From: Capsulimonadaceae bacterium
GTDB lineage: Bacteria; Armatimonadota; Armatimonadia; Armatimonadales; Capsulimonadaceae
Direction: 5' to 3'
NCBI GenBank assembly: GCA_965215505.1
Contig: OZ244065.1
Span: 2,528,001-2,592,000 of the forward strand
Length of the DNA stretch: 64,000 nt
Each line of letters begins with the position of its first letter. The first letter of the stretch is position 1. Positions 1-8,267 of this stretch are shown here, piece after piece. The position numbers and the translations under genes are program-made. The notes beneath the pieces are model-generated. The model saw only the letters and a list, made by a program, of their open reading frames with translations, had not been told where the DNA came from and made no database searches.

Positions 1-458
1 CTGAGGTCGAACACGCCCAGGCCCCGCTGGGCGTCGGTGCGCTGGGCGAGGTAGTAGGGCAACGAGGCGACCACCTCCACGTCGTGGCCGCGCAGGAACC
101 GGGCGGTGTCCTCCTGCCCCGGCTCGAACAGGACGGTCAGGTTGCACCGGTCAATGACGTGCCTTCCTAATGCTCTGGCCTCGGCCACCAAGTACCGGAA
201 ACTCGGGTTGAGTTCCGGGGCACCGCCCGTAATGTCCAGCGTCCTGATGTCCGGGTTGCGGCGCAGGGCGTCAAGGACCTGAGCGGCCGTCTCGGCCGTC
301 ATGCTCTCGGTGCGGTTCGGCCCCGCCTCGACGTGGCAGTGCTTGCAGGCCTGGTTGCACCGCTTGCCGACGTTGACTTGCAGCGTCTCGATATTCGTGG
401 CGGCCAATGGCCACAGGCCCGCGCCGGTGAGTTTGTCTTGAAAGGTGATGCCGGTCAT
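1..458 (-). CDS. arsS: Arsenosugar biosynthesis radical SAM protein (5' part; runs off the window's left edge)
   Basis: My translation: MTGITFQDKL...LQVNVGKRCNQACKHCHVEAGP...LDITGGAPELN...VIDRCNLT...VVASLPYY. CxxxCxxC motif; SD AAGGAGG before the ATG. Absent from the ORF track because it has no stop in the window. Confidence 0.85.
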   Translation of the reverse strand, partial: MTGITFQDKLTGAGLWPLAATNIETLQVNVGKRCNQACKHCHVEAGPNRTESMTAETAAQVLDALRRNPDIRTLDITGGAPELNPSFRYLVAEARALGRHVIDRCNLTVLFEPGQEDTARFLRGHDVEVVASLPYYLAQRTDAQRGLGVFDL

Positions 459-533
459 GCCTCCTTTAACGGAACAAGGCGGCGGATTGTTCCGCCGCGA
501 ACCCTTTTCGGCACACCCCGCGTTACAAACGAT

Positions 534-1169
534 ATGAGAAGACGTGCATTCACGCTCACCGAACTCCTAACCGTCGTCGGCATCCTCGCCCTCCTCGCCG
601 CCCTTCTGCTGCCGGTCCTCGGCACGGTGCGCGAGAACGGGCGGCGCACGGCCTGCCAGAGCAACCTGCGCCAGATCGGGCTGGCGATGCAGCAGTACCT
701 CCAGGACAACGACCACCGATATTTGCCCGCAAACATTGGGTTCCCGCACCCGCACCCGCTCCTGGCTTATGTCGGCGACAGCGCCGTGTTCCTCTGCCCG
801 ACCGTCAGCGAGGCGCAGCAGGAGCGGTTAGGGCAGGAAGGCGGAGTCTCACTGGACTACCAGTACGACGAGTTCCGCCTCCTCACCCGCTCCGCGCCCT
901 ATGACCCCTGGTACGCGATCTCCGATTCGGCGGTCGCCCATCCGGCGGCCTTGTGGCTCTACAAGGACAGCACGCAGACGCTGACCCTCTGGCGCAAACT
1001 GCTCGCACCCTGCGGGCACCCAGTCATTGGCAGCACCCTACACTCGGGCGGCGGCAACTATCTGTTCGCGGACGGCCATGTGCGCTGGCTGACGCCGGAA
1101 GGCTTCGCCACTGTTGCCTGCATCAACGGACCGCTCCCGCCCCCATTCACCGATAACAATGGCGAGTAG
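534..1169 (+). CDS. DUF1559 family prepilin-type N-terminal cleavage/methylation protein with H-X9-DG C-terminal motif
   Basis: MRRRAFTLTELLTVVGILALLAALLLPVL...CQSNLRQIG...HSGGGNYLFADGHV. Start moved to ATG 534 because the longer ORF overlaps arsS. Confidence 0.9.
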   Translation: MRRRAFTLTELLTVVGILALLAALLLPVLGTVRENGRRTACQSNLRQIGLAMQQYLQDNDHRYLPANIGFPHPHPLLAYVGDSAVFLCPTVSEAQQERLGQEGGVSLDYQYDEFRLLTRSAPYDPWYAISDSAVAHPAALWLYKDSTQTLTLWRKLLAPCGHPVIGSTLHSGGGNYLFADGHVRWLTPEGFATVACINGPLPPPFTDNNGE

Positions 1170-1186
1170 GTGAATGACACAGCAAA

Positions 1187-1215
1187 GGGGCAGGCGGCTG
1201 ATGCCGCCCGCCCCT
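1187..1215. terminator. Hairpin between convergent genes
   Basis: GGGGCAGGCGGC-TGAT-GCCGCCCGCCCC inverted repeat. Confidence 0.55.
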
Positions 1216-1276
1216 CTGGGCCGCTCCGTGTATGAAGGATGATTGGAGCGGCACGGCCTCGTCTCAGACGCCCGAA

Positions 1277-1861
1277 CTAGCCGGGCAACAAGACGGTGTC
1301 CACGACATGGATGACGCCGTTGGACTGCATGACGTTGGGGATGGTCACATGGGACACGTCGCCCTTGGCGTCCTTGATGTTGAGGCCGCTGCCCGCCTTC
1401 ATGAAAGTGAGCGTGCCGCCCTCAACAGTCTTCAGGGTGGCCTTGCCGTGGCCCTTCTTCACCAGGCCGAGCAGGTCGGCGGCCGTGTAGCGGCCCGCGA
1501 CGACGTGGTAGGTGAGGACTTTGGCGAGCGTCGCCTTGTTCTCCGGCTTCAGCAGCGTCGGCACCGTGCCCGCGGGCAGTTTGGTGAACGCCTCATTGGT
1601 TGGGGCGAATACGGTGAACGGCCCCGCGCCTTCCAGGGTGTCCACCAGGCCCGCCGCCTTCACTGCGGCCACCAGCGTCGTGTGGTCCTTGGAGTTGACG
1701 GCGTTCTGGATGATGTTCTTCGTGGGGTACATCGCCGCACCGCCCACCATCTTCGTGCCGCCCATCTTCATCCCGCTCATCTGGGCCGTCGCCGGCATGG
1801 AGAGCGCGCCCAGGCTGACCAAAAGGGCTGCGCCCAGGCCGAGCGTCGTTCTGGTGTTCAT
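1277..1861 (-). CDS. Secreted fasciclin (FAS1) domain protein
   Basis: Signal peptide; [47 protein letters not shown]. Confidence 0.95.
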   Translation of the reverse strand: MNTRTTLGLGAALLVSLGALSMPATAQMSGMKMGGTKMVGGAAMYPTKNIIQNAVNSKDHTTLVAAVKAAGLVDTLEGAGPFTVFAPTNEAFTKLPAGTVPTLLKPENKATLAKVLTYHVVAGRYTAADLLGLVKKGHGKATLKTVEGGTLTFMKAGSGLNIKDAKGDVSHVTIPNVMQSNGVIHVVDTVLLPG

Positions 1862-2078
1862 TCTGTTCTTCTCTTTTCTAGATCGTTCGGAAACCGCCGC
1901 GCAGTGAGGATTCTCAAAGGCCGCAGGCTACTGTTATGTTATACACCAGACCGGGGGCAGGATAACGGGGTGGATTAACTGGGGGTTACAGCAACAATTA
2001 ACAGAAGATTACAAGAACGGCGGCGGAAGATGCACAGCAAGGGAGTATATCGTTAGACAAGTGGGTATCAGTAGCATG

Positions 2079-2104
2079 GGAACGCTTTTTCACGTCCCAT
2101 CGTC
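2079..2104 (+). promoter_or_regulatory. Possible ECF sigma factor promoter for the second fasciclin gene
   Basis: GGAAC-N17-CGTC, 27 nt upstream of the ATG. Confidence 0.45.
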
Positions 2105-2130
2105 GTCTTTTTAGAAAAGAGAACACCTCG

Positions 2131-2646
2131 ATGCTACACCCCACCCGCAAGGCGGCCCTCCCCGTCGCTGCCCTGCTGGCCGCCTCCGCGCTGACTTTCG
2201 CGGCACCCGCCCCGGTACGCGCGGCGGACATCGTTCAGACGGCCACGAAGGCCGGACAGTTCAAGACCCTGGTCGCCGCCCTGAAGGCCGCCGGCCTGGT
2301 CGCGACCCTGAAGGGGGCTGGCCCGTTCACGGTCTTCGCCCCCACCGATGCCGCCTTCGCCAAGCTGCCCCCCGGCACCGTGGCGACCCTGCTGAAGCCG
2401 GCGAACAAGAAGACGCTGATCAAAATCCTCACCTACCACGTCATCGCCGGGGCGGCCGTGAGTGCCAAGCAGGCGATGGCGATGACGGATCCGACCTCCC
2501 CGCCCACCGTGGAAGGCGCGACCTTGCAGATCAAGACGGTCAACGGCAAGGTCATGGTCAACAACGCCACCGTCGTCAAGGCGGACGTCAAGGCCAGCAA
2601 CGGCGTCATCCACGTCATCAACACGGTCCTGATGCCGCCGAAGTAG
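2131..2646 (+). CDS. Secreted fasciclin (FAS1) domain protein
   Basis: Signal peptide ending [41 protein letters not shown]. Confidence 0.95.
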
Positions 2647-2675
2647 CACGGTCCCCGCGCATCCTAAGCGCCGGA

Positions 2676-2718
2676 CGGAAGAGCCGCCGGGGTCGTGTGA
2701 CCCCGGCGGCTCTTCCGC
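2676..2718. terminator. Long perfect hairpin after the fasciclin gene
   Basis: CGGAAGAGCCGCCGGGGTC-GTGT-GACCCCGGCGGCTCTTCCG. Confidence 0.65.
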
Positions 2719-2738
2719 GTTGGCAGAGGCAGGCAAAC

Positions 2739-2768
2739 AAAAAAGCCACCCGCGAGGGGTGGCTTTTT
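2739..2768. terminator. Bidirectional intrinsic terminator (tRNA and fasciclin transcripts)
   Basis: AAAAAAGCCACCC-GCGA-GGGTGGCTTTTT. Confidence 0.85.
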
Positions 2769-2782
2769 GCTTCTCTGGACAG

Positions 2783-2855
2783 TGCGCCCGGCGGGGCTCG
2801 AACCTGCGGCCTCTTAGTCCGCAACCAAGTGCTCTATCCACTGAGCTACGAGCGC
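2783..2855 (-). tRNA. tRNA-Arg, anticodon GCG (CCA not encoded)
   Basis: GCGCTCGTAGCTCAGTGGATAGAGCA-CTTGG-TTGCGGA-CTAAG-AGGCCGCAGGTTCGAGCCCCGCCGGGCGCA. 7-bp acceptor stem, D and T arms present, 7-nt anticodon loop UU-GCG-GA. Confidence 0.93.
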
Positions 2856-2859
2856 GTAC

Positions 2860-3273
2860 TTACCAGAAGTGGTCTTCAGCCATCAAACAGCCTTTGGTCT
2901 GGCTGTTTTTGGTTGGCTGATAGCGTATCGTAATTGCCGTCTTACGATGAAAGTGTTCTGACTCAAGCCAAACGATCTTGTCTATCTTCGGCAGGTAGAC
3001 CAGGAGGACGTCCACTTCCTGGGCCGTATAGAACTGGCTGCCGGCTTTGTTGCCGCGTGTGATCTTTCTCAGATTGAGGAAGACGACGCCTGATGCCTGA
3101 GAGCATTTGGCATCCGCGTACTTCACCTGCGCCCGGACAAGGCGCTCGCCGCAGTCCACAACAAGGTCGTAGCGGCAGTTTGCCATCGTCGGCTCGCTGA
3201 GGCTGATGTTCCGCTCCAGCGCAAGTTGCTTTACTTTGAGCATGGCGTATTCGCCCTTGCCGTTCGTGTCCAT
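2860..3273 (-). CDS. Group I intron-associated-type PD-(D/E)XK endonuclease (PDDEXK_5 / I-Ssp6803I-like), free-standing
   Basis: MDTNGKGEYA...RYDLVVD...RAQVKY...FYTAQEVD; 137 aa; SD GGAGG; visibly more AT-rich than its neighbours. Confidence 0.8.
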   Translation of the reverse strand: MDTNGKGEYAMLKVKQLALERNISLSEPTMANCRYDLVVDCGERLVRAQVKYADAKCSQASGVVFLNLRKITRGNKAGSQFYTAQEVDVLLVYLPKIDKIVWLESEHFHRKTAITIRYQPTKNSQTKGCLMAEDHFW

Positions 3274-3317
3274 CCTTAGAACCTCCCAGCCTTATGACTT
3301 CCGAGGCGACGAGGAAC

Positions 3318-3346
3318 ATTATACCGAACCAAACGGGTCCTGTCAA
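3318..3346 (-). promoter_or_regulatory. Consensus sigma70 promoter driving the endonuclease and tRNA-Arg
   Basis: TTGACA-N17-TATAAT, a perfect consensus match. Confidence 0.9.
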
Positions 3347-3399
3347 GTGGCGGGGCGCGAAAATAATCGCGGAGAGGCATCGAATCGGAAGTGAACCCG

Positions 3400-3428
3400 T
3401 TGACATCAACTGCGTCCAATGCCATAAT
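3400..3428 (+). promoter_or_regulatory. Sigma70 promoter of the iron-uptake operon
   Basis: TTGACA-N17-CATAAT. Confidence 0.75.
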
Positions 3429-3490
3429 AGGGTTAGCAAGTCTCCGACTAGATTGGTCGGAGATAGGCACAGTTAGAGAAGGTCGCTCCA

Positions 3491-4471
3491 ATGGCAGTCA
3501 GCATACAGCACAACAGCGTACAGACACGGTTCCGATACGCCCGGCCGGTCCTCATCGGCCTGGCCGCCCTGCTGGTCGTCGGGGTCCTGGCCTGGCAGGC
3601 GTTCACGGCGGGCATGACGCCCGATCCAACGGTCAAGGGCCTGAGTCCTGCCGCCATGATCGTCAGTACCGGCATCCTGGTCTTCCGGGAGGGGCTGGAG
3701 GCGATCCTCGTCCTGGCCGCAGTGACGGCGGGCATGGCACGGGGCGCACAGAGCGCCGCACTGCGAGCCGTCCCGGTGGGCGGGACGGCGGCGTTCCTCG
3801 CGACGGTCGCCACCTGGTTTGCGGTCGTGGCGGTCATCGCCCATGTCAACGCGCCGGAGTACGCCGTGCAGGCGGCGACCGGGCTGTTGGCGATCGCGGT
3901 GCTGCTGGTCGTTATGAACTGGTTCTTCCACAAGTTCTACTGGACCGGATGGATCGCTAATCACAGCAACCGGCGCAAGCAGATCATGGACTCGGCGGCC
4001 TCGGGCACGGCGGGGACATTTTGGGGTCTGGCCCTGTTGGGCTTCACGGCGATCTATCGGGAGGGATTCGAGGTCGTCCTGTTCCTGCAAGACCTGCGGC
4101 TTCGGGCCGGGAACGTCATTGTCGCCGAGGGCATGGCGGTCGGGCTTGTGCTGACCTTGATAGTCGCCGTGCTGACCTTCATCGCCCATAAGAAGCTGCC
4201 GTACAAGAAGATGCTCGTCGTGACGGGCGTCCTGCTGGGTATCGTCCTGCTCATCATGGTCGGGGAGAGCGTCCAGGAGATGCAGCAGGCCGGGTGGATC
4301 GCGACCACGGGCATCGGTTTCACGCTGCCGGGCTGGCTAGGGCTGTGGTTTTCGGTCTTCCCGAATGTGCAGAGTCTGGCGGCGCAGGCCCTGGCGGCGG
4401 CCATCGTGGTCGGCTCCTATCTCTCCGTGCCGTATGTCCGCGCCCGTGGCCGAAGCATGGCAGCGGCGTGA
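3491..4471 (+). CDS. FTR1/EfeU family iron permease
   Basis: Two RExxE motifs (FREGLEA, YREGFEV); multiple TM helices. Confidence 0.92.
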   Translation: MAVSIQHNSVQTRFRYARPVLIGLAALLVVGVLAWQAFTAGMTPDPTVKGLSPAAMIVSTGILVFREGLEAILVLAAVTAGMARGAQSAALRAVPVGGTAAFLATVATWFAVVAVIAHVNAPEYAVQAATGLLAIAVLLVVMNWFFHKFYWTGWIANHSNRRKQIMDSAASGTAGTFWGLALLGFTAIYREGFEVVLFLQDLRLRAGNVIVAEGMAVGLVLTLIVAVLTFIAHKKLPYKKMLVVTGVLLGIVLLIMVGESVQEMQQAGWIATTGIGFTLPGWLGLWFSVFPNVQSLAAQALAAAIVVGSYLSVPYVRARGRSMAAA

Positions 4472-5094
4472 CGCTCGCGGTGGGATTGCGGGCTGGGCTG
4501 AGGCTTGAAGCGGTTTCAATCGCCTGGATGGTGGTTGAGGCTTCTATATCGGTCGGGGCCGGCGTAGCCGCCGGGAGCCTGCTCCTAGCGGCGTTCGGCG
4601 TGGACAGCGTGATCGAGGTGATCTCGGCATCCCTGCTGTTCTGGCGTTTGCGCCGGGAGGCGGCGGGGCTGCTTCCTGGCGAAGAAGCCGTGGGGGCTAT
4701 GGAGCGGAGGGTTTCACGCGCCTCCGGGCTTCTGCTGTACGCCCTGAGCCTGTGTGTGACGATCATGGCTGTTTATGGCCTGACGCACCGGCATCGAGCA
4801 GGAACGTCTTGGCTAGGCATCGGTGTTGCTCTGATAGCCGGGTTCGGGATGCCCGTGCTGGCGAAGGCGAAAATCCGTGTCGCGGACGCTATCGGCAGCC
4901 GCGCCTTGCGGGCGGACGCGGTGGAGACGTTCACCTGCGGTTACCTGTCCTGGGCTTTGCTCGCGGGGCTTGCGGCGAATGCGGCCCTTCACTGGTGGTG
5001 GCTGGATGGTGCCGCCGCCCTGGCGATCGTCCCTCTCCTTGCCAAAGAAGGAAGAGAGGCCATGACCGGCGAATGTGGCTGTCACGGCGAATGA
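4468..5094 (+). CDS. Cation transporter (CDF-like membrane domain only)
   Basis: GTG start overlapping the FTR1 stop (GTGA); FGVDSVIE, ALRADAVET, WWWLDGAAAL; C-terminal CGCH. Confidence 0.8.
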   Translation: MTLAVGLRAGLRLEAVSIAWMVVEASISVGAGVAAGSLLLAAFGVDSVIEVISASLLFWRLRREAAGLLPGEEAVGAMERRVSRASGLLLYALSLCVTIMAVYGLTHRHRAGTSWLGIGVALIAGFGMPVLAKAKIRVADAIGSRALRADAVETFTCGYLSWALLAGLAANAALHWWWLDGAAALAIVPLLAKEGREAMTGECGCHGE

Positions 5095-5109
5095 ATTGAC
5101 TGCACGACT

Positions 5110-5517
5110 ATGACAAAGCCTGATGAACAATTGAAGCGCACACCATCGCTGTTGTGCCGCTGGTACGCCTCGCAGAAGGCGTCGCGGCTGGCGGCCGAGG
5201 TCTCGGAGTTCCGCACCGACGAAACCGGCCACACCGAGATGCCCCTGAGCCGGATGCGGCCCGGCGAGTTCGGCCACGTCCGCGGCCTGCTGCCCGGCTG
5301 CGAAGTGCGCGACCACCTGCTGGAACTGGGCTTCACTCTCGGTACGGAGATCACGGTCCTCCGGGTCGCCCCGCTCGGGGACCCCCTGACGGTGCGGATT
5401 CGCGGCTACCAGCTCTCCCTGCGCCGCCGTGAGGCCGAGGCGATCACGATGCGGCGCTGCCCGCCCGACTTCGACCTGTACGCGGACGATCCGGCGCTGG
5501 ATCAGGACGGTGTTTAA
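5110..5517 (+). CDS. feoA: Ferrous iron transport protein A
   Basis: LLELGFTLGTEI...APLGDPLTVRIRGYQLSLRRREA; true start may be downstream (MPLSRM). Confidence 0.92.
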   Translation: MTKPDEQLKRTPSLLCRWYASQKASRLAAEVSEFRTDETGHTEMPLSRMRPGEFGHVRGLLPGCEVRDHLLELGFTLGTEITVLRVAPLGDPLTVRIRGYQLSLRRREAEAITMRRCPPDFDLYADDPALDQDGV

Positions 5518-7649
5518 TGGCGGCCACTCCCGCCCCGTCGCCCGGCAAGGCGGCGGGCGCGACTCGACTCCCCCTCTACGCCCTCGTCGGCAACCCCAAC
5601 TGCGGCAAGACCACGGTCTTTAACGCCCTCACGGGTCTGCGCCAGAAGGTGGGCAACTACCCCGGCGTCACGGTGGAGAAGAAGGAAGGCCGCCTGCGCC
5701 TGCCCGGCGGCGACGCCTCGCTGATTGACCTGCCCGGCCTGTATTCGCTCACCCCGCGTTCCCCCGATGAGGCCATCGCCCGTGACGTTCTGCTCGGGCA
5801 CCGGTCGGACGTACCGCAGCCGGACGGCATCGTCCACGTCGTGGACGCCGCCAACCTAGAGCGCAACCTTTACCTCACCTCGCAGATATTAGATTTAGGT
5901 CTGCCCACCGTCATCGTCCTGACCATGACCGATGTGGCCGCGAAGAACGGCCATGCGGTGGACATCGCCGCTCTGGAAAAGACGCTGGGCGTCCCGGTGC
6001 GGCCCGTGCAGGTTTCTAAGAACGCGGGCATGGACGCACTGCGCGACGCGATCTCGGTCCTGCTTGGAACGCCCCCCCCGCCGCCGCGCGGCTGGGTGCT
6101 GCCGACCGACGCCGAGGTGGAGGTCGCCGAGCTGTCTCGGATGCTCCAGGACCAGCACGGTACGCCCGAGCGTCAGAGCGTGACCGAGGCCGTCGGCCTG
6201 CTGATGGCGGAGGGCCTGCGTCCCGAGGAAGAAGGCCGCTGGTCGGCCTCCGTCATGCGGCACGTCCAGAAGGACAAGAACAACCTGGCCGCATTGGGCA
6301 TCGACTTCCCCAGCGCGGTCGTCGAGTCCCGGTACGCCTGGGCGGGGCGTGTCGGGGCTAAAGTCGTCTCCAAGCCGCGCCGGGCGGCCCCCACCCTGAC
6401 GGACGCTTTGGACCGGGTCCTGATGCACCCGTTCTGGGGGTACGTCATCTTTTTCGGCGTGATGGCCTTCGTCTTCCAGACCATCTTCACCTGGGCGCAG
6501 GTCCCGATGAACTGGATCGGGTCGGGCGTCAGCCTCTTACAGACGTTCATCACCGCCCACATGCCCCCTGGCGACTTGCAGGACCTCCTGGTCAACGGCA
6601 TCATCGCGGGCGTCGGCACGACGGTCACGTTCCTGCCCCAGATATTGCTGCTGTTCTTCGCCATCGCCCTGCTGGAGGACACCGGCTACATGGCGCGGGC
6701 GGCCTTCCTGATGGACAAGATCATGTCCAAGGTGGGCCTGCACGGCAAGTCTTTTATCCCCCTGCTGTCGTCCTTCGCCTGCGCCATTCCGGGCATCATG
6801 GCGACGCGGACGATCGACGACCGCAAATCCCGGCTCGTCACCATCCTGGTCGCCCCGCTGATGTCCTGCTCGGCGCGCATCCCGGTCTACACCCTGATGA
6901 TCGCCGCCTTCATCCCGAACCGGCGCGTGCTGGGCGTCTTCACCCTGCCCGGCCTGACCATGATGGCGATGTACTTCCTGGGGATGGCGGCGGCCTTCGG
7001 CATGGCCTGGTTGTTCAAGAAGACACTGCTCCGGGGTGCCCCGCCCGTCTTCTTCCTGGAAATGCCCCCCTACCACAAGCCGTCCGCCCGGACCGTGCTG
7101 ATGACCATGCTCGAGCGGGCCTGGCTGTTCCTGCGCCGGGCGGGGACGGTGATCCTCTCGGTCAGCATCGTGCTGTGGTTCCTCTCGACCTACCCGAAGT
7201 CCCCAGCCGGGACGCCGCCCGCGCAGAGTCTCGCCTCCTCCTATGCCGGCACGGCGGGCCACGTCATCGAGCCGGTCATCCGGCCCCTGGGCTTCGACTG
7301 GCGCATCGGGGTCAGCCTGGTCTCGTCGTTCGTCGCCCGCGAGGTCTTCGTGTCTTCCATGGGGACGATCTACAGCGTCGGCGACAAGAACAGCACGACC
7401 GAGGAGGTGTCCAGCACCCTGAAGGACAAGCTGCGGGCCGACCCGCTGTTCTCGCCCCTGCTGGCCGTCTGCGTGATGATCTACTACGTCCTCGCCATGC
7501 AGTGCCTGTCTACGGTCGCCGTGGTCAAGCGCGAGACGAACGGCTGGACGTGGCCGCTGTTCATGACGGGCTACATGACCGCCCTGGCCTGGCTGGCGAC
7601 CTTCGCCGTGTACCACATCGGGCTGGCCCTCGGCTGGGGCACGCGATAG
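5517..7649 (+). CDS. feoB: Ferrous iron transport protein B
   Basis: GNPNCGKT, VGNYPGVTVE, DLPGLYSL, LLEDTGYMARAAF, MSCSAR gate motifs. Confidence 0.97.
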   Translation: MAATPAPSPGKAAGATRLPLYALVGNPNCGKTTVFNALTGLRQKVGNYPGVTVEKKEGRLRLPGGDASLIDLPGLYSLTPRSPDEAIARDVLLGHRSDVPQPDGIVHVVDAANLERNLYLTSQILDLGLPTVIVLTMTDVAAKNGHAVDIAALEKTLGVPVRPVQVSKNAGMDALRDAISVLLGTPPPPPRGWVLPTDAEVEVAELSRMLQDQHGTPERQSVTEAVGLLMAEGLRPEEEGRWSASVMRHVQKDKNNLAALGIDFPSAVVESRYAWAGRVGAKVVSKPRRAAPTLTDALDRVLMHPFWGYVIFFGVMAFVFQTIFTWAQVPMNWIGSGVSLLQTFITAHMPPGDLQDLLVNGIIAGVGTTVTFLPQILLLFFAIALLEDTGYMARAAFLMDKIMSKVGLHGKSFIPLLSSFACAIPGIMATRTIDDRKSRLVTILVAPLMSCSARIPVYTLMIAAFIPNRRVLGVFTLPGLTMMAMYFLGMAAAFGMAWLFKKTLLRGAPPVFFLEMPPYHKPSARTVLMTMLERAWLFLRRAGTVILSVSIVLWFLSTYPKSPAGTPPAQSLASSYAGTAGHVIEPVIRPLGFDWRIGVSLVSSFVAREVFVSSMGTIYSVGDKNSTTEEVSSTLKDKLRADPLFSPLLAVCVMIYYVLAMQCLSTVAVVKRETNGWTWPLFMTGYMTALAWLATFAVYHIGLALGWGTR

Positions 7650-7658
7650 GAGGAACGG

Positions 7659-8267
7659 ATGAGTACAGCAGTCTTAGAGGCACCGCGTTCGGTCACGGCT
7701 TCTTCAGCAGAAGACGTGGTGATCCCGCGCAAGAAGTGGACGCGGGATGAATGCCGCCGCCTCGTCGAAATGGGCCTGCTCGCGGCAGGGAAGTTCGAGC
7801 TGATCCACGGAGACATTATCCTCAAAATGACACAGCATGAGCGGCACATTTACGTCTGCAAGCAGGTCCAAAAAGCTCTGGAAGCCATCTTCGGCGTTGA
7901 CTATGTACGCCTCGCAAACCCGATCGCGATCGGCAGGCACGAGGAACCGGAGCCGGACGCGGCTGCGATGCACCGTCCTTTTGTAGACTACCTGCGTATG
8001 GGGACGCCTCTCCCGGCGGAAGTACGGCTGGCCGTGGAAGTCTCAGACAGTACGCTGCTCTGGGACTTGAACACAAAGAACGGGCAATATGGGAATGCAG
8101 GCATTCCTGAGTATTGGGTGGTGGACATCCCGAACCGGCTGCTGCACGTCTTCCGCGAGCCGACTGCTGACGGCTACGCTTCCGAGACGATCCTCACGCC
8201 CGAAGACGAAGTCCGCCCGCTCGCCGCCCCCGACTCCCCCGTCCGCGTCGCCGACCTGCTCCCCTGA
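7659..8267 (+). CDS. Uma2/DUF820 family endonuclease
   Basis: ELIHG, EPEPD, LAVEVSDSTL, YGNAGIPEYWVVD. Confidence 0.92.
   Translation: MSTAVLEAPRSVTASSAEDVVIPRKKWTRDECRRLVEMGLLAAGKFELIHGDIILKMTQHERHIYVCKQVQKALEAIFGVDYVRLANPIAIGRHEEPEPDAAAMHRPFVDYLRMGTPLPAEVRLAVEVSDSTLLWDLNTKNGQYGNAGIPEYWVVDIPNRLLHVFREPTADGYASETILTPEDEVRPLAAPDSPVRVADLLP

Follow-up and report, generated by a model that had tools for sequence, protein, structure and literature searches.

We analyzed a 64-kb stretch of DNA from a Capsulimonadaceae bacterium, hereafter the window (G000:C1:2528001-2592000), which is part of a single-contig genome of 6.18 Mb with a GC content of 66.5% (G000). An open reading frame (ORF) of 137 amino acids on the minus strand of the window (2860..3273, ATG to TAA) is likely a free-standing, homing-endonuclease-like selfish gene that forms one heritable cassette with the tRNA-Arg(GCG) gene behind it. 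The encoded protein belongs to PF11645, the family of I-Ssp6803I. The sequence comparisons described below cover the locus in the genus, homologues of the protein in genomes, metagenomes, and viral contigs, and the tRNA genes beside them.

The gene lies between the tRNA and a promoter. The tRNA gene (2782..2855, minus strand), the sole tRNA found by ARAGORN in the window, is intact and intron-less, encodes no CCA, and matches Rfam with 62.2 bits at 2783..2855. A spacer of 4 nt (2856..2859, minus strand) separates the stop codon from tRNA position +1, with a putative RNase P site just 3' of it, and this gap is kept in 10/10 of the closest metagenome loci (L092-L101). At the other end, a sigma-70-type promoter (3346..3318, minus strand), which has TTGACA at 3346..3341, a 17-nt spacer, and TATAAT at 3323..3318, gave 12/12 matches in a promoter scan. 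The scan of 2000-4000 returned 4 promoter-like sites, compared with a mean of 0.3 in 50 shuffles. The leader of 44 nt (3274..3317, minus strand) is presumably transcribed and carries GGAGG (3286..3282) 8 nt 5' of the ATG. Behind the tRNA, folding indicated a terminator at 2735..2768 (minus strand), with a hairpin of 7 G-C-rich pairs, a 5-nt loop, and then a U run; a hairpin forms on the plus strand too. The fold of 2730-2785 on the minus strand has an energy of -25.2 kcal/mol (z -4.12), which was equalled by 0/200 shuffles. A terminator pattern scan gave 0 sites at the locus, probably because A-/T-tracts lengthen the stem.

A first-pass annotation of the window had described this promoter, a Shine-Dalgarno sequence, the 137-residue ORF, the 4-nt gap, the intact tRNA-Arg, and the terminator, and all of them are present on the minus strand. 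The ORF is also AT-richer as described, with a GC content of 54.7% against 66.5% for the genome. Searched with Rfam at E<=0.1, window 1-8000 gave no group I intron, and nothing interrupts the tRNA. An intron-encoded endonuclease has its ORF inside a group I intron, and the window ORF has no such placement. A separate tRNA promoter within the 3' end of the ORF was rejected; only a poor TTGATG-18-TAAGTA was seen by eye, and its start would fall inside the tRNA.

The family assignment made in the first-pass annotation, that of the PD-(D/E)XK nuclease I-Ssp6803I, agrees with three kinds of evidence. Pfam placed the protein in PF11645 (PDDEXK_5) with E 5.4e-22 and 78.7 bits (cut-off 26.1), residues 1-135 aligning with positions 1-135 of the 138 in the profile. 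A profile of 29 relatives matched only I-Ssp6803I (2ost) among PDB entries (E 1.3e-10), in an alignment that pairs YD and QVK. In these 29 relatives, D36, Q49, and K51 are invariant and align with the YD...QVK of 2ost, residues which we take to be catalytic there. The AlphaFold (AF2) model of the 137-residue protein has a predicted local distance difference test score (pLDDT) of 88.1, and the 2ost chains occupied ranks 1-4 in Foldseek, with E down to 5e-8 and template modelling scores (TM) of 0.66-0.75. The next matches, MepB, the SPARDA nuclease domain, and the Hjc resolvases, were much weaker than 2ost. The ORF is thus supported as an I-Ssp6803I-family gene by Pfam, fold, and profile. No match for the protein was found in NCBIfam or PADLOC, and in PHROGs only phrog_5018 (function unknown) matched.

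The window protein may be an oligomer like I-Ssp6803I that spans a long target. A four-copy model scored 0.84 against 0.00 for the best control, the runs agreed on at least 88% of contacts, and the partner pLDDT was at least 80, although the model may be a memory of 2ost. The mark was attained by 20/30 solved pairs and 1/23 single chains. The ratio of nonsynonymous to synonymous divergence (dN/dS) between intact copies was 0.03-0.13 in 12 pairs, and 25 metagenome clusters of exactly 137 amino acids were 69-89% identical. By these sequence measures, purifying selection acts on the intact nuclease copies. The same genome has a second, distant PF11645 paralogue (L002 1477-1893; G000:C1:1466826-1467242; 138 amino acids, 34.8 bits). 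It lies directly 3' of an amidase-like gene and has no tRNA nearby.

We compared the same locus across the genus by seeking the tRNA in all 24 genus genomes and the protein in 41 relatives. The locus was recognized by a divergent promoter with a conserved palindrome, about 40 nt, CTTGACA-17-GGTATA(A/C)T, a CTCGTTGCCTCGG-like leader start, and tRNA-Arg(GCG). It was recovered in 17/24 genomes and not in G002, G006, G007, G009, G010, G012, and G015, some of which are incomplete assemblies. Ten of the 17 loci are empty, with the promoter 23-45 nt from the tRNA and no nuclease gene. Five are intact (G000, G003, G004, G021, and G014, where CTG replaces the ATG of the others), and two are decayed (G011 and G022). 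The remnant in G011 consists of 31 N-terminal and about 12 C-terminal codons around an internal deletion, and the gene of G022 is left as frameshifted pieces. Such a presence/absence polymorphism at one precise site is what a homing gene is expected to leave. The nuclease gene is an optional insert that decays.

The empty alleles also identify the promoter. CTTGACA-17-GGTATA(A/C)T precedes the tRNA where the allele is empty and the nuclease gene where it is occupied. Because the 10 empty alleles carry the same promoter 23-45 nt from the tRNA, it is the tRNA's own promoter. The view of a free-standing gene between a tRNA and its own promoter, already held in the first-pass annotation, therefore stands, and the comparison with relatives that it had proposed came out in its favour, since the gene is not present at this site in all of them. 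The leader start (CTCGTCGCCTCGG-like) is common to the window and the empty-allele leaders. In window 3300-3317 and in the leaders L016-L027, the CTCGTTGCCTCGG-like start resembles tRNA-Arg positions 4-17, in empty and occupied alleles; the likeness has no statistical significance. Either an old fossil or a leader element with a function could account for it.

Contigs of X4-X7, compared with the window at 85% likeness, include a few that join the tRNA 5' end to the promoter region (2856-3313 in X4 and X6, with a short side of 21 letters; 2855/2857-3392 in X5 and X7, with sides of 20 and 57). These joins have low depth and were set aside as too weak. Contigs of X4-X7 that are about 97% like the window span the occupied allele. 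The joining contigs most likely stem from the empty alleles of other organisms that were sampled alongside.

Homologues of the nuclease are closely tied to tRNA genes. We counted a locus as associated when a same-strand tRNA started within 150 nt of the stop codon, and the gaps seen were 0-67 nt. The association was found in 17/17 genome loci (on one-genome-per-species contigs), in 67/80 metagenome loci, and in 5/7 viral contigs (two of these records also count among the metagenome loci). The genome and metagenome loci together span 11 anticodons. Among the 80 metagenome loci, 77 have room of at least 100 nt, and 3 of the 13 loci outside the count are too near a contig end to judge. Another 8/18 were found among further PF11645 matches in 401 genomes of the phylum, where any PF11645 match occurs in only 16/401 genomes. 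The chance per locus is 0.00077 (63 tRNAs in 6.18 Mb; strand-specific, within 150 nt upstream of a tRNA), and against this expectation the 67/80 metagenome loci indicate that the arrangement is not chance. The tabulation of PDDEXK_5 genes at tRNA 5' ends suggested in the first-pass annotation is thus strongly positive.

The tRNA types beside the homologues are Arg(GCG, CCG, CCU), Gly(CCC), Pro(CGG, GGG, UGG), Asp(GUC), Thr(CGU), Ala(GGC), Ser(CGA), and Asn(GUU). Several of the loci lie inside tRNA arrays, including those of phage-like contigs. In a nuclease tree of 99 sequences, which rests on a short alignment and has many unresolved forks, clades hold one tRNA type, with 15 changes over 96 rows and 11 states (minimum 10). 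Broken copies occur outside the genus as well, with an in-frame stop in L056 and a truncation in L061. Within the genus, L009 (G007:C573) holds another homologue, 41% identical and interrupted by an in-frame TGA, immediately ahead of a tRNA-Ala(CGC), which gives a further tRNA type and a further broken copy.

The insertion site is indicated by half-tRNA fossils at related loci. A second PF11645 lineage in the genus lies before tRNA-Gly(CCC)-tRNA-Cys in G016 and G001. Compared with empty relatives, both genomes have the first 29-30 nt of tRNA-Gly(CCC) between the promoter and the nuclease gene. The fragment is of the type 2 allele, and the complete tRNA behind the gene is of type 1. Counted by hand, the fossil is 30/30 identical to the type 2 of G000 in G016 and 28/29 identical to that of G014 in G001, in each case the variant of its own clade. 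G016 and G001 look like two independent insertions into resident type-2 genes, as far as these fragments tell. We scanned 82 loci for fossils with 100 shuffles each, and clear upstream 5' fossils were found in G016 (z 14.2), G001 (z 9.4), L145 (z 10.9), L119 (z 5.6), and L153 (z 6.4). The fossil of L145 corresponds to tRNA-Pro positions 1-37 directly 3' of the promoter, and those of L119 and L153 correspond to tRNA-Arg(CCG) positions 3-35 and 3-22. A sixth candidate, L176, was discarded as the neighbouring tRNA of an array.

Ten loci without a tRNA 3' of the gene were inspected, and most are mirror images of this arrangement. In L167 the order is a 5' fossil (1-37), a complete tRNA-Pro, and the gene; in L143 it is a complete tRNA-Pro, the gene, and a 3' fossil (38-77; z 10.3). 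The 3' half of a tRNA directly follows the stop codon in L149, L151, and L156, and L173 has the 5' and 3' halves of a tRNA on both sides of the gene. L139 and L161 have no tRNA or half-tRNA account. A group I intron as the explanation of the tRNA-less homologues was rejected, with no Rfam match in L139, L143, L149, L167, and L173 at E<=1. Such an intron (77.1 bits) was found in L171 (region 1637-1925), right after the anticodon of a tRNA-Asp 3' of the gene. The nuclease of that contig groups with the Woesebacteria copies. The break point of the fossils at 37/38 is in the anticodon loop. Taken as traces of past events, the sister-lineage fossils suggest that the cassette entered the anticodon loop and brought a replacement tRNA with it.

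The tRNA-Gly(CCC)-tRNA-Cys locus was followed in 21 genus genomes (L199-L219; G000:C1:2269422-2269600). Its two tRNA-Gly(CCC) alleles differ in the D-stem, the anticodon arm, and the variable loop. Placed on the rpoB tree, they require at least 7 changes among 19 genomes, and a single clade is rejected (p 2e-60). The tRNA-Arg(GCG) alleles require 4 changes on the rpoB tree of 21 genomes.

At the tRNA-Arg(GCG) locus, the nucleases fall into two lineages that occupy the same site. The type A nuclease of G000 and the type D nucleases of G003, G004, G014, and G021 are 49-52% identical. Homologues from Blastocatellia and Chloracidobacterium (Acidobacteriota) and from Woesebacteria have 39-51% identity, which makes them as close as type D is to type A. 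In the rpoB trees, G000 groups with the decayed G011 and G022, and the four type-D hosts lie within a clade of 11 genomes whose other 7 members are empty. The type-D tRNA-Arg allele is 93-97% alike among the four hosts and only 59-79% like the allele of the 7 empty relatives. The tRNAs of these 7 are identical over the first 40 columns and 96% like that of G000. The stem changes of the type-D tRNA are all compensatory.

The variable loop also follows occupancy. Among the related tRNA-Arg(GCG) sequences, it reads GGCC in 22/22 occupied or decayed alleles and GGTC in 10/10 empty ones. The window tRNA has the nuclease-linked allele (C, not T, in the variable loop), and it differs from the empty type only before position 48. 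Co-conversion of flanking markers, a second expectation for a homing gene, is seen in the linked tRNA-Arg alleles and in the tRNA-Gly fossils of resident alleles that stand beside a different functional allele. The type-D tRNA-Arg (L028-L030, L005) and the type-1 tRNA-Gly (L199, L207) have the same 5-bp anticodon stem, CAACT/AGTTG, and the same flanking bases. This common stem could be chance, a shared resistance feature, or a sign of cassette ancestry.

We propose the following mechanism for the cassette. The tRNA promoter would drive a single RNA that contains the leader, the nuclease mRNA, and the tRNA. Of 21 sequencing runs, all in the form of contigs, the single RNA run contained 0.04 of the words and gave no evidence for such a transcript. 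RNase P would cut 4 nt 3' of the stop codon and free the tRNA, and with this release no intron would be needed. The protein would cut tRNA-Arg(GCG) alleles that lack the nuclease gene, in or close to the anticodon arm or the variable loop. Repair off the occupied allele would then copy the nuclease gene and at least the 5' two-thirds of the cut-resistant tRNA. The displaced half of the old tRNA would persist as the fossil of the sister lineages. After fixation the gene would decay, as in the two closest relatives, or be lost cleanly. The first-pass annotation had described a minimal element living in the 5' leader. The position in the leader is as described, but the description is too narrow. 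Because the tRNA alleles are linked and the sister lineages carry fossils, the element is probably not a mere ORF dropped into a leader, and the gene appears to travel with the tRNA behind it. On this sequence pattern, the leader position is probably the outcome of insertion and not its target.

A broader proposal, on which our judgement is evenly balanced, is that these cassettes are an undescribed class of mobile element. Its members would combine a PD-(D/E)XK homing nuclease with a spare tRNA gene, home into the anticodon loop of the cognate tRNA, and overwrite the resident allele with a cut-resistant one. The tRNA promoter and RNase P would replace the intron. Such elements would be active in at least 3 bacterial phyla and in phage tRNA arrays and would drive swaps of tRNA alleles between species. 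They would perhaps be the ancestor or the descendant of the intron-borne I-Ssp6803I arrangement.

Several observations weigh against the homing cassette. Its weakest link is the step of insertion into a tRNA, which the comparisons document only in sister lineages. A clear upstream fossil was found in only 5/82 loci, none of them a tRNA-Arg(GCG) locus; the best shuffle exceeded G000 (z 3.1), and G004 gave z -0.9. For the window locus, insertion into a tRNA gene is therefore extrapolated from other lineages. The GGCC/GGTC association comes from related sequences, and its figures are a count and not a statistic. At the tRNA-Gly locus, the empty G013 and G020 have a tRNA identical to that of the occupied G016 and G001, so the linked allele is no proof of the target. 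The nuclease gene is absent from nine of the 11 genomes with the type-1, nuclease-linked tRNA-Gly allele. Because fossil and functional tRNA are direct repeats, recombination between them would excise the gene cleanly and leave the carried allele. Such clean loss would explain these nine genomes and the allele changes on the rpoB tree.

The type-D copies differ by a synonymous divergence (dS) of 0.8-2.4, compared with 0.55-0.79 for rpoB of their hosts. There is thus no sign of recent transfer, the polymorphism is old, and recent horizontal spread of type D among the four hosts finds no support from dS. An old polymorphism with losses by allele replacement fits type D equally well. The type-D hosts as one clade are rejected on rpoB DNA (approximately unbiased test, p 5e-5) and not on rpoB protein (p 0.058), in a tree of a single marker and for a group defined by the trait itself. 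In the window clade (G000, G011, and G022), one ancestral gain followed by decay explains everything. The nuclease gene could be a relic, acquired in one or two ancient events, passed on vertically, and repeatedly lost since, with homing ceased and the window copy merely unbroken. The divergence of the type-D copies, at least that of their hosts, the fit of the window clade to one gain and two independent decays, and the Arg locus without a fossil all agree with such a history. We nevertheless consider it unlikely. The low dN/dS and the strict length of 137 amino acids in 25 clusters favour selection that still acts on the protein. Empty hosts with a different, genus-typical tRNA stand among the occupied ones, and vertical loss alone cannot restore that tRNA. 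The two tRNA-Gly insertions, apparently independent, each keep the resident allele of their lineage as a fossil.

Movement without any action of the nuclease has a smaller probability in our judgement and is quite unlikely. Here cassettes of a tRNA and an ORF would move by homologous recombination through conserved tRNA and promoter flanks or through phage tRNA arrays, with the nuclease as a passenger. Relatives of the gene inside tRNA arrays on phage-like contigs suit this account, as do the tRNA-Gly(CCC) alleles, for which the rpoB tree requires at least 7 changes, most of them with no nuclease gene present. It leaves unexplained, however, why this family in particular, whose solved member comes from a tRNA-fMet intron and reportedly targets the anticodon region, is the passenger in 67/80 loci and why fossils end at 37/38. 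The least probable account, and a very unlikely one, is a nuclease that serves the host in defence, repair, or tRNA-gene integrity and sits beside tRNA genes for their strong, growth-coupled promoters. The arrangement is conserved across phyla, the protein appears to be under purifying selection, and the SPARDA nuclease domain is a weaker fold match. A review table also lists PF11645 domains in candidate phage-defence systems (PMC10952713). Against a host function, a PF11645 match is present in only 16/401 genomes of the phylum, the closest relatives hold decayed and empty alleles, and PADLOC gave no match. Linked foreign tRNA alleles and half-tRNA fossils are traces of insertion and not of a housekeeping gene. 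A homing cassette thus remains the likely reading of the window locus.

The proposed cassette resembles several known systems in part. Integrase islands and prophages insert into tRNA genes, restore their function with a carried segment, and leave a partial tRNA scar. The cassette has in common with them an insertion within a tRNA gene, the function kept by a carried copy, and a partial-tRNA scar. It differs in that the islands use tyrosine recombinases, involve the 3' part of the tRNA, and carry many genes, whereas the cassette has one PD-(D/E)XK gene, a break at 37/38, and a whole tRNA. In the family of the window protein itself, Bonocora and Shub reportedly described in 2001 a tRNA-fMet intron endonuclease with specificity for the region of the anticodon. 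I-Ssp6803I is encoded in an intron of the Synechocystis tRNA-fMet gene. It forms a tetramer, its target has 23 bp, and homologues are described as 'generally' cyanobacterial (PMC3384342). The family distribution is patchy, suggesting horizontal transfer (PMC3424549), and 80 stand-alone PDDEXK_5 genes are reported in jumbo phages (PMC12880540). The window protein resembles I-Ssp6803I in Pfam family, best full-length fold match, YD...QVK motif, similar size, a tRNA gene as home, and possibly self-association, I-Ssp6803I being a tetramer (PMC3384342). The anticodon loop, to which the sister-lineage fossils point as the insertion site, is another likeness. The differences are an identity of about 19-20%, a window without a group I intron, and a gene in the leader outside the mature tRNA with an intact tRNA behind it.

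Among phage and array systems, T4 SegB prefers to cut within tRNA genes (PMC8421152). Its free-standing gene among tRNA genes transfers itself together with flanking tRNA genes (PMC2330249), as the cassette would. SegB is different in that it is a GIY-YIG protein that acts in phage co-infection and not in a bacterial chromosome, and the available text on SegB reports neither a tRNA-leader role nor half-tRNA fossils. HNH genes are conserved beside or inside horizontally moving tRNA arrays (PMC8421152, PMC6582537). These cyanobacterial and mycobacterial genes resemble the window gene in the pairing of a nuclease with tRNA arrays, and some relatives of the window gene are also inside arrays. They are of another family and lie beside arrays instead of 0-54 nt from the 5' end of a single housekeeping tRNA, and no replacement-tRNA logic is described in the parts available. 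Collaborative homing (PMC3984707) has a resembling case in one locus of 80 (L171); the window has no intron, and the variant tRNA allele would have to give the protection. In the full-text literature, taken without most subscription journals and without supplements, we found no description of PD-(D/E)XK genes in tRNA leaders or of a nuclease-plus-replacement-tRNA cassette.

The surroundings of the cassette are conserved in part. A divergent TTGACA-17-CATAAT promoter (11/12 matches, with TG) is present at window 3400-3463 on the plus strand. A perfect palindrome with 8-bp arms (TCTCCGAC...GTCGGAGA) lies 3' of this promoter and ahead of an FTR1-like permease gene (3491-4471). Throughout the genus the locus keeps the divergent promoter and the palindrome, also in genomes that have another gene opposite them, so the palindrome is probably an operator. 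On the tRNA 3' side are two related genes, about 51% identical (1277-1861, minus strand, and 2131-2646, plus strand). They were labelled fasciclin-like by the look of the sequence alone, with no family search run, and among the compared loci the nearer one was seen in G000, G011, G022, and G017 alone. Elsewhere in G000, ARAGORN found 63 tRNAs and no tRNA-Arg(ACG). To read CGN codons the genome has GCG (2 genes), UCG, and CCG, an uncommon set among bacteria. Outside the window, six minus-strand tRNAs form a cluster (G000:C1:2219562-2221409; Arg GCG, Asn, Met, Gly GCC, Phe, and Lys), whose tRNA-Arg(GCG) encodes CCA and is very unlike that of the window. This cluster may be an acquired array.

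The usual view is that homing endonucleases persist in essential genes by residing in self-splicing introns or inteins, or, in phages, between genes. The family of the textbook tRNA-intron case seems to use a third way, in which the element brings a replacement copy of its target and RNase P takes the role of splicing. If true, this would account for why the clade keeps to tRNA genes, whether in soil bacteria, in candidate-phyla bacteria, or on phage-like contigs. It would also account for the swaps of tRNA alleles between species at nuclease-linked loci and for the horizontal movement of single tRNA genes, perhaps of arrays. The homologues may form a set of natural nucleases with long tRNA-gene targets. 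As a one-gene system, the cassette would make the cycle of gain, fixation, decay, and loss readable from genomes.

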